Virus record (IMG/VR): IMGVR_UViG_2563366976_000012
Coordinates: 1 to 20,586 of that record
From: a virus
Taxonomy: Duplodnaviria > Heunggongvirae > Uroviricota > Caudoviricetes
Strand: one strand, 5' to 3'
Length of the DNA stretch: 20,586 bases
Shown: positions 10,052 through 11,235 of the stretch, piece after piece
Numbering within the stretch: position 1 is the stretch's first letter
Layout of the letters: every line of letters starts with the position of its first letter
The notes under the pieces: generated by a model
What the model saw: the letters and a program-made list of their open reading frames with translations, nothing else
What the model was told of the DNA's origin: nothing
Databases searched by the model: none
Program-made: the position numbers and the translations under genes

Positions 10052-10887
10052 TTACGCCCCCTTACCTCTGAAGGATTCAGCGACAAATTTATGAGGCAGG
10101 CCAGCGCCGAAGCATCATTAATATAGTCATACAAGCTAACAGCCAGCGGAGATTCGGCTTTTGCCAACATAGGATAAAGCTGCTGCAGCCAGACCTGATG
10201 AATTGATGAAATGTAGGAATAGAGAACGCTGGCGTTATGTGCAACGTCGCTCAGTACAGAGGGATTTGAAAGCTGTTTCTCCATCTGGTTAAAGGCATTG
10301 ATGTATGCCTCTTTGAACCGGGCAGCACGTTTCCCCGTGAAGCCCATGGCAAGAAACGCAAAACCGTCGCGGGTGATTTGGTAACAAGGGAGTTTGCGGC
10401 CTGTGCAATCGGTGTAATCACTGGGCTGAAAATTCAGCTCAGTGAATTCAACAGAGCACTCAAGCGTCTGGATTTTTTGAATAACGTTTTTGTGCTGCTT
10501 GCAGAAATATTCGGCAACGGCCAAAGAAGAGGTAACAGCCTTCCCATGGATAACATCAATTTTAGGGTGAGTTTGGGTAGGGGTGGTTGCCATAGTGACA
10601 TCCTCATGTGCGAATTTTGAAAACTCACCACATGGGACGCCAATCACAGAGGTGGTGAGACGTACAGGGTTGGCGTAACCGGTCGCACATGACCCCGGCG
10701 CATCTTTCGATGCCCCTGCACGCCCCACCATAATTTGGATGTGAGGAAACGTGCGCAAAAAAACCGCTGAAGCGCGGTTATGCGCATGTGCGAATTTCAG
10801 GACGCCAATCCCGGCACCCGCTTTATAAGGTGCCTGAACAGTGTAACGTCCCGGAATGGCAGAATCAATCATTACTGGTTTGCTCAT
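10048..10887 (-). CDS. Rha-domain phage regulatory protein, paralogue 2
   Basis: 279 aa; same architecture. Tracts near-identical to paralogue 1 (10270-10380 vs 9400-9500; 10800-10870 vs 9930-10010) separated by diverged sequence. Internal GAGGA-N7-ATG at 10591-10593. Confidence 0.6.
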   Translation of the reverse strand: MSKPVMIDSAIPGRYTVQAPYKAGAGIGVLKFAHAHNRASAVFLRTFPHIQIMVGRAGASKDAPGSCATGYANPVRLTTSVIGVPCGEFSKFAHEDVTMATTPTQTHPKIDVIHGKAVTSSLAVAEYFCKQHKNVIQKIQTLECSVEFTELNFQPSDYTDCTGRKLPCYQITRDGFAFLAMGFTGKRAARFKEAYINAFNQMEKQLSNPSVLSDVAHNASVLYSYISSIHQVWLQQLYPMLAKAESPLAVSLYDYINDASALACLINLSLNPSEVRGRK

Positions 10888-11056
10888 GATCGTCCCTTAT
10901 CTCCCTGAACTTTTGCCTGAAATGCTCAAGTGGGCTGAAGCATTCATGTTCATAGCCTTCACGGAGGTAGATAACCCGTTGTGTTTCCGGCTCCCAACGA
11001 ATGACTCTGACGGGCACTCCGTGGTGATCTTTGAACCAGCGGTTAACTTGTCGCAA
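10865..11056 (-). CDS. Small ORF (63 aa) with TTG start and strong SD, overlapping the neighbouring ORF; or the C-terminal part of a frameshifted gene
   Basis: AAGGAG 7 nt upstream of TTG. Translation [62 protein letters not shown] is protein-like; its stop overlaps the paralogue-2 start region. Confidence 0.35.
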
Positions 11057-11235
11057 AGGACTGTCTCCTTCTGCCGGTTGAAATCACCCACAGCCCACTC
11101 TGCAAAGCTGTGGGTTACAATTTCCCTGTCACCTGGTACATTCACTGCATAGCAATACTCCACCTTCGCTTTTCCACCCGGTACAGGAAGCGCAATCAGT
11201 TGCGAGCGACGGTAGTGTGTTGTTAAACTGTTCAT
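10897..11235 (-). CDS. Hypothetical early protein (112 aa as called); C-terminal half doubtful
   Basis: ATGA translational coupling with the upstream gene. N-terminal half ([52 protein letters not shown]) is protein-like; the remainder is Ser-rich and overlaps the 63-aa ORF in another frame. Confidence 0.4.

Follow-up and report, generated by a model that had tools for sequence, protein, structure and literature searches.

The window analyzed here, the whole 20,586-nucleotide (nt) stretch of the virus record IMGVR_UViG_2563366976_000012, carries two overlapping protein-like open reading frames (ORFs) on its minus strand, one of 112 amino acids (aa) running from 11235 to 10897 and one of 63 aa running from 11056 to 10865. 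The pair had been noticed from the DNA letters alone (hereafter, the sequence-only reading), and the comparison with databases and homologous loci bears it out. Going beyond that reading, the longer frame is the known gene ymfM, whose low-complexity tail is kept open by selection, and the shorter one encodes a member of the Pfam family DUF4222 (E = 6e-18). The locus is made up of the following features.

11232-11816, minus strand: upstream regulator of the YmfL family, CII (CP76)-like (NCBIfam NF041471, phage_reg_YmfL, E = 8e-54)
10897-11235, minus strand: ymfM orthologue, 112 codons plus TAA, with a conserved N-domain followed by a Ser/Thr-rich tail predicted to be disordered
11057-11235, minus strand: part of ymfM outside the overlap (codons 1-59 and two bases of codon 60), encoding the conserved N-domain
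11065-11070, minus strand: Shine-Dalgarno (SD) motif AAGGAG of the DUF4222 gene, within ymfM codons 56-58
11054-11056, minus strand: TTG start codon of the DUF4222 gene, 8 nt after the SD motif
10865-11056, minus strand: DUF4222 gene of 63 codons and a TGA stop, shifted by -1 against the ymfM frame
10897-11056, minus strand: dual-coding overlap of 160 nt (DUF4222 codons 1-53 and the first base of codon 54)
10897-10899, minus strand: ymfM stop codon TAA, formed by the rare Ile codon ATA (DUF4222 codon 53) and the next base, 9 nt before the next ATG
10885-10887, minus strand: ATG of the downstream 279-codon Ash/Rha-like ORF, within the variable 3' tail of DUF4222

The ATG of ymfM and the TGA of the upstream gene share the tetranucleotide ATGA (11235-11232). 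This upstream gene also matches Pfam PF06892 (Phage_CP76, E = 2e-6), and the annotation of near-identical loci by the Prokaryotic Genome Annotation Pipeline (PGAP) agrees; the label YdaT-like, given to it from the letters alone, has to be replaced by YmfL/CII-like, as a YdaT match was not found. Relative to the long ORF, DUF4222 lies in the -1 (+2) frame. On the ymfM side the overlap takes up codons 60-112 plus the stop, and DUF4222 extends 32 nt beyond that stop, where it runs into the start of the Rha paralogue (10887), as had been noted, and overlaps this 279-codon ORF by 23 nt. The AAGGAG motif and the TTG start described by the sequence-only reading are both in place, with a spacer of 8 nt (ACAGTCCT) rather than the seven it had given.

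The 63-aa product matches DUF4222 (PF13973) over model positions 3-52 of 53 with a score of 64.6 bits (cut-off 27), and it belongs to PHROG 1343 as well. Its length is within that of the DUF4222 homologues (n = 108), mostly stand-alone proteins of 59-70 aa, and its cI/cro/CII-like context is that of a typical enterobacterial prophage early region. The 112-aa product is 89% identical over 112 aa to YmfM (b1148) of the e14 prophage of Escherichia coli K-12, the N-half being identical, and matches PHROG 1170 with E = 7e-65. The gene order ymfK-ymfT-ymfL-ymfM is conserved between the window and K-12, which also has the nested DUF4222 ORF (TTG start, 59 codons; positions 4002-4181 of the K-12 locus, L004). 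A search of NCBIfam found no model matching either small protein.

Amino-acid selection on the two frames was assessed in related loci, about 260 in all, retrieved with either the YmfM N-terminus or DUF4222 as anchor, as the median pairwise Nei-Gojobori ratio of nonsynonymous to synonymous substitution rates (dN/dS). This ratio was 0.28 for the YmfM N-half in the ymfM frame; for the overlap, it was 0.17 when read in the DUF4222 frame and 1.55 when read in the ymfM frame. Positional entropy reaches its maximum at ymfM position 3 in codons 1-56 and, from about codon 65, at ymfM position 2, which is DUF4222 position 3; the switch falls near codon 60. The common polymorphisms of the overlap in E. 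coli-type loci fall at DUF4222 third positions, where they are synonymous for DUF4222 and nonsynonymous for ymfM, and the resulting YmfM residue changes are often radical (C>Y, G>E/V, A>V, S>N, V>E). In the AlphaFold2 model of YmfM, residues 1-66 form a structured, moderately confident beta-beta-beta-alpha-alpha N-domain, and residues 67-112 have a predicted local distance difference test score (pLDDT) below 50; the long frame is Ser/Thr-rich beyond about residue 60, where the sequence-only reading had described a Ser-rich, low-complexity stretch. The YmfM N-half and DUF4222 are under purifying selection, and the YmfM C-half is without amino-acid constraint and predicted to be disordered. Conservation of the 112-aa frame from end to end, with no counterpart of the 63-aa frame among homologues, had been named as the pattern that would speak against two overlapping protein-like frames; the homologues show the 63-aa frame as the conserved one in the overlap.

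An OLGenie-style dN/dS is uninformative for the ymfM tail because DUF4222 position 3 is ymfM position 2. The loci anchored on DUF4222 are unbiased as to ymfM; in 160 of these, all unique, a read-through ORF enters from upstream, and 158 have no +1 stop before nt 157-169 of DUF4222. This openness extends across at least four divergent N-terminal classes. The other sense frame reaches a stop within 2-170 nt, in most cases no later than nt 26. When codons were resampled among their synonyms according to local usage, each lineage had a probability of remaining open, P(open), of 0.03-0.18; multiplied across 14 lineages that share less than 85% nt identity, this gives 1e-15, an optimistic value, as the lineages are related. 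Stop avoidance was tested more directly at Val, Leu and Ile codons, whose purine-ending synonyms create a +1 stop if A or G comes next. Before A or G, none of the 62 such codons ends in a purine, against 18 of 79 before C or T (p = 1.4e-5; p = 0.005 with only the six lineages below 75% identity).

DUF4222 codon 53 together with the next base forms the ymfM stop in 88 of 93 unique sequences, as xTA before A or G in 87 (81 of them with ATA) and as GTG before A in one. In 132 of 156 loci, 9 nt separate the ymfM stop from the next ATG, and in another 17 the gap is 6 nt, whatever gene follows. Compared with stop-free resampled sequences, the tail has more Ser/Thr and fewer hydrophobic residues in 10 of 10 lineages. 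The ymfM tail frame is kept open by selection, and both frames show selection in the overlap, DUF4222 as amino-acid constraint and ymfM as stop avoidance and composition.

The alternative that survives these data best holds that only the N-terminal ~60 codons of ymfM and DUF4222 are functional, with the tail as a meaningless read-through whose length has no selective value. The ymfM-frame dN/dS of 1.55, the predicted disorder, the N-domain homologues that stand alone at 59-68 aa and the natural truncated variants of the ymfM frame all fit this explanation. It does not account for the absence of stop-creating synonymous codons at all 62 risky sites when 23% of the safe sites carry purine endings, nor for an open frame in nearly every locus despite the low resampled P(open). 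Nor would it foresee a stop fixed at 157-169 nt by a rare ATA codon, 6-9 nt before the next ATG, or a compositional bias that recurs in every lineage compared, and we therefore consider it unlikely.

The DUF4222 frame has its own start signals throughout the collection. In the aligned start column of 93 unique sequences, 56 have ATG, 35 TTG, one GTG and one another codon, so that a start codon is present in 92, and an SD-like motif precedes the start in 158 of 159 homologous loci. YmfM Cys61 is near-invariant because its TGC codon shares two bases with the DUF4222 start codon. AlphaFold2 models DUF4222 as a confident five-strand small beta-barrel (mean pLDDT 82), and the protein is predicted on this basis to be an SH3/Tudor-like small beta-barrel. 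Together with the dN/dS of 0.17, these data support a genuine nested gene with a non-ATG start, one of the possibilities raised by the sequence-only reading. The stop position of DUF4222 is variable, and the gene overlaps the next one by 1-86 nt. In 14 E. coli-type loci (L028, L031, L038 and others), the TGA located 10 codons upstream of TTG (ymfM nt 150, window equivalent 11086) is replaced by GGA, which extends the DUF4222 frame to a GTG 14 codons upstream and yields an ORF of 73-84 aa; the AAGGAG-TTG arrangement is unchanged in these variants.

Two further candidates at the start region and the overlap were discarded. The SD pairs with the start region in a weak 6-bp hairpin, which was dropped as a mechanism since its z-score is only -1.9. 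An antisense ORF on the plus strand (10856-11152, 98 codons; 90 in K-12), codon-aligned opposite DUF4222, is judged not to be a gene: it is closed in 3 of 10 lineages, its P(open) by resampling is 0.12-0.55, and where it is open, this is mainly because DUF4222 is without TTA, CTA and TCA codons.

Upstream of the SD motif, the ymfM N-domain coding sequence contains a conserved secondary structure.

11087-11114, minus strand: hairpin or inverted repeat CCCACAGC-N12-GCTGTGGG, within the ymfM N-domain coding sequence, ending 16 nt upstream of the DUF4222 SD motif

Its cells are paired in 84% of cases, against 26-54% in slid controls. One base pair switches between CG (20) and UA (11) with no unpaired state, the first base of a His/Tyr codon covarying with the third base of a Val codon, and the hairpin is maintained by compensatory changes across divergent classes. 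Such a structure invites the idea of a programmed shift, also raised from the letters alone; here this would be a -1 ribosomal frameshift that joins the YmfM N-domain to DUF4222, giving a fusion of about 115 aa besides or instead of the separate products. The -1 relation of the DUF4222 frame, its openness for 10 codons before TTG and the rare in-frame fusion ORFs of public assemblies (P0029, P0055, P0060, P0066) would agree with it. However, the hairpin lies upstream, not downstream, of the possible shift window, which is limited to those 10 codons. A search for slippery heptamers found no X XXY YYZ in phase with ymfM along the entire ORF, and the sole XXXYYYZ (GGGAAAT, 11126) is out of phase and precedes a -1-frame stop. 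DUF4222 brings a conserved SD and start codon of its own and stands alone at 59-70 aa across its family, and the fusions form rare clusters (1-14 members versus 1295 in the main 112-aa cluster) with four different junctions, as indels or sequencing errors would give. A programmed shift is thus very improbable.

Still less credible is a frameshift mutation or sequencing indel in a normally single gene of about 115 aa, that is, a pseudogene; the sequence-only reading had also considered such a mutation, and the comparative data refute it. That the two halves abut in different frames and that a few single-frame versions exist in databases could be taken in its favor, but the comparison with homologues shows two frames as the norm in the 160 unique loci, with fusions as rare, singleton cases. 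Of 5426 complete E. coli genomes, 2011, among them K-12, contain the 371-nt cassette, and the identical two-frame layout is found at ≥80% coverage in 2005. The cassette also occurs in Shigella, Klebsiella, Pantoea and other phages; two frames are the norm in Klebsiella, Citrobacter and Salmonella phages as well, and Klebsiella and other phages keep the layout at 52-80% nt identity. It is the 112-aa frame that makes up the dominant protein cluster (P0003, 1295 members), and DUF4222 family members have the length of the nested ORF rather than that of a fusion.

The last alternative, that only the annotated 112-aa ymfM is real and DUF4222 is a spurious ORF or family, has the K-12 reference annotation on its side, which lists ymfM alone, and its probability is negligible, given that DUF4222 is the frame under purifying selection where the two overlap, that the start codon and SD are conserved, that the predicted fold is confident and that DUF4222 genes occur without any read-through ymfM.

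In the curated K-12 record, ymfM is the only gene given at this place (NC_000913.3 1203822-1204180; L004 3823-4181). PGAP calls only a 'DUF4222 domain-containing protein', leaving a gap of ~175 nt after ymfL, in ~2000 genomes, and the PGAP-annotated K-12 MG1655 derivative NZ_CP097884.1 likewise has DUF4222 only. Each annotation pipeline loses one real gene of the pair.

Together, our in silico comparisons show that the two overlapping coding frames initiate independently and that each bears a selection signature. We consider it likely that the locus represents a conserved cassette of lambdoid (e14-like) prophages, whose two genes share one DNA stretch and yield two proteins from different frames. 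Two further genes lie upstream of the cassette.

11854-12054, minus strand: P22-Cro-like gene
12152-12778, plus strand: cI-like repressor of the LexA family

A promoter-like site is located at 12109-12081. Judging from this context, the early rightward promoter would drive the cassette after cleavage of the LexA-like cI in the SOS response, and both proteins would be translated from the resulting transcript. ymfM would be translationally coupled to the CII-like ymfL by the ATGA overlap; its first ~57 codons would make a conserved small domain and its last ~53 would cross DUF4222 in the +1 frame, giving a sequence-unconstrained, hydrophilic and presumably disordered tail. DUF4222 would initiate independently at its own SD and TTG inside ymfM (ATG in most other lineages). 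The tail frame is probably held open so that YmfM carries an intact, harmless tail, or so that the ribosome reinitiates on the next gene, or both; termination 9 nt from the next start codon would couple the operon translationally.

Several points weigh against the two-gene cassette as formulated here. Low-frequency truncated ymfM frames exist, of 63 aa (L129), 88 aa (P0027, 128 members) and 68 aa (P0042), and therefore the tail is not indispensable for prophage persistence. The homologous lineages are not fully independent, which makes the combined p-values optimistic, and the comparative data cannot separate a role of the tail peptide from a role in ribosome transit or termination position only. 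TTG is a weaker start codon, and the DUF4222 output in the window may therefore be low. Ribosome profiling or mass-spectrometry/proteomic evidence for translation of either frame was not found, and a row for the YmfM protein was not found in a multi-omics table (PMC11002266).

Two of the loci show how the ymfM frame can vary in length. The 63-aa YmfM of L129 results from a premature stop. In L002 (2740-3330), a ymfM frame without a stop runs into the downstream Ash-family ORF, and PGAP flags this ymfM as partial.

The cassette bears on a published phenotype. ymfM (b1148) of the cryptic prophage e14 was reported in 2020 as the long-sought sfiC, the 'cell division inhibitor YmfM', and expression of the K-12 ymfM DNA leads to filamentation and loss of the Z-ring (Ansari et al., bioRxiv 10.1101/2020.11.19.390815). 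That work used a pBAD24 clone of the whole ymfM ORF, the D1-8E library fragment (ymfL'-ymfM-ymfN') and lambda-Red deletions of ymfM (bioRxiv 10.1101/2020.11.19.390815), and neither protein features nor an internal ORF of ymfM are discussed in it. All these constructs and deletions include or remove the DUF4222 domain with its SD and TTG. Since they carry or remove both ORFs, they do not yet single out the 112-aa product as SfiC, and no published experiment consulted separates the two. K-12 ymfM RNA is up ~16-28-fold (log2 4.0-4.8) late in the SOS response (PMC11002266).

It is possible, although we would rather doubt it than expect it, that the SOS division block stems from or requires the nested DUF4222 barrel rather than the 112-aa product, and that DUF4222 is a conserved dual-coding locus of Enterobacterales phages. 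The division inhibitor, and whatever contacts the FtsZ pathway, may be either product. In the searchable literature, ymfM and DUF4222 were not found together, and DUF4222 is mentioned in five papers, only in passing; dual coding at the locus, selection on its open frame and what this means for the ymfM/SfiC assignment seem to be undescribed so far.

The direction in which the overlap arose was considered from more distant loci. In Morganellaceae-type loci (L171-L195, L211), the homologue of the YmfM N-domain is a separate gene of 67-69 aa that ends at the DUF4222 start; it belongs to PHROG 26022, which is weakly related to PHROG 1170. Stand-alone homologues of the N-domain, of 59-68 aa, exist as well, and more distant DUF4222 genes (L191-L210, L195) have stops in the +1 frame. 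From the separate N-domain genes and the +1 stops of the distant DUF4222 genes, we infer that, within the overlap, DUF4222 is probably the older of the two frames and that the tail of ymfM was added to it by overprinting.

The Providencia-type DUF4222 genes (L171-L190, L211; ~1208-1375 in each) hold a nested +1 ORF of their own, which begins at an ATG 7 nt after the DUF4222 ATG and spans 55-66 codons, with a P(open) of 0.007-0.03 by resampling. Its third positions are pyrimidines in 79% of codons versus 49% in the flanking genes, and its peptide contains a transmembrane-like hydrophobic segment of ~20 residues (Kyte-Doolittle 19-residue maximum 2.0-2.7). This Morganellaceae ORF may encode an unannotated small membrane protein. 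In a separate observation, a 59-aa query of the YmfM N-domain matched proteins of 1076-1700 aa (P0202, P0219, P0223, P0236) in 6-13 repeated stretches, corresponding to YmfM residues ~11-52; these may reflect a shared beta-hairpin repeat motif or be spurious.

Downstream of DUF4222, the minus strand carries two tandem Ash/Rha-type ORFs. Rfam matches above the gathering score were obtained on this strand for isrK (10757-10833 and 9894-9970) and for C4 antisense RNA (10648-10735 and 9782-9869), and an intrinsic terminator-like site is located at 10779-10762, also on the minus strand. The isrK and C4 matches fall in the 5' thirds of both 'Rha paralogue' ORFs, and therefore the Pfam Phage_ASH parts of these ORFs coincide with small RNA (sRNA) genes. 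The arrangement resembles a putative tandemly duplicated cassette of the P1 immI / Gifsy isrK-antirepressor type, and the true coding sequences of the Rha domains probably start later than 10887 and 10051. Elsewhere in the window, the STnc100 sRNA (1430-1638, minus strand), the anti-stx2 sRNA AsxR (1374-1426, plus strand) and three tRNA genes (1717-1963, minus strand) form a block at 1374-1963 that is typical of Shiga toxin (Stx)-converting lambdoid phages, upstream of the late region.

Compared with known systems, the locus is closest to e14, whose ymfM has the same length (112 aa), the same position after ymfK, ymfT and ymfL, the ATGA coupling and a nested DUF4222. It differs from e14 in its downstream neighbor, an Ash/Rha-type ORF with isrK and C4 RNAs where K-12 has oweE/ymfN, and in the length of DUF4222, 63 aa in the window and 59 aa in K-12. 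With the DUF4222/PHROG 1343 family, the window ORF shares the whole model, the length and the enterobacterial prophage context; the near-universal open +1 frame of the family members appears not to have been described before.

Out-of-frame nested genes are a familiar feature of phages, as in lambda Rz/Rz1, MS2 L and phiX174 E/K. As in the Rz/Rz1-type genes, a longer gene here accommodates, in a different frame, a second gene equipped with a ribosome-binding site; amino-acid constraint rests on one of the frames, and the overprinted stretch is disordered or unusual in composition. In contrast to them, DUF4222 is not fully embedded, and the nested gene would be the older, constrained frame, with the tail of the host gene ymfM as the overprinted novelty. 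Lambda G/GT and dnaX, in turn, are programmed -1 frameshift systems; their upstream and downstream coding segments stand in the same -1 relation, whereas the present locus has neither a slippery heptamer nor a conserved fusion product, and its downstream frame has an independent SD and start. The ymfM-DUF4222 locus is a clean natural example of overprinting, in which one frame keeps its sequence and the other keeps its openness, composition and stop position.

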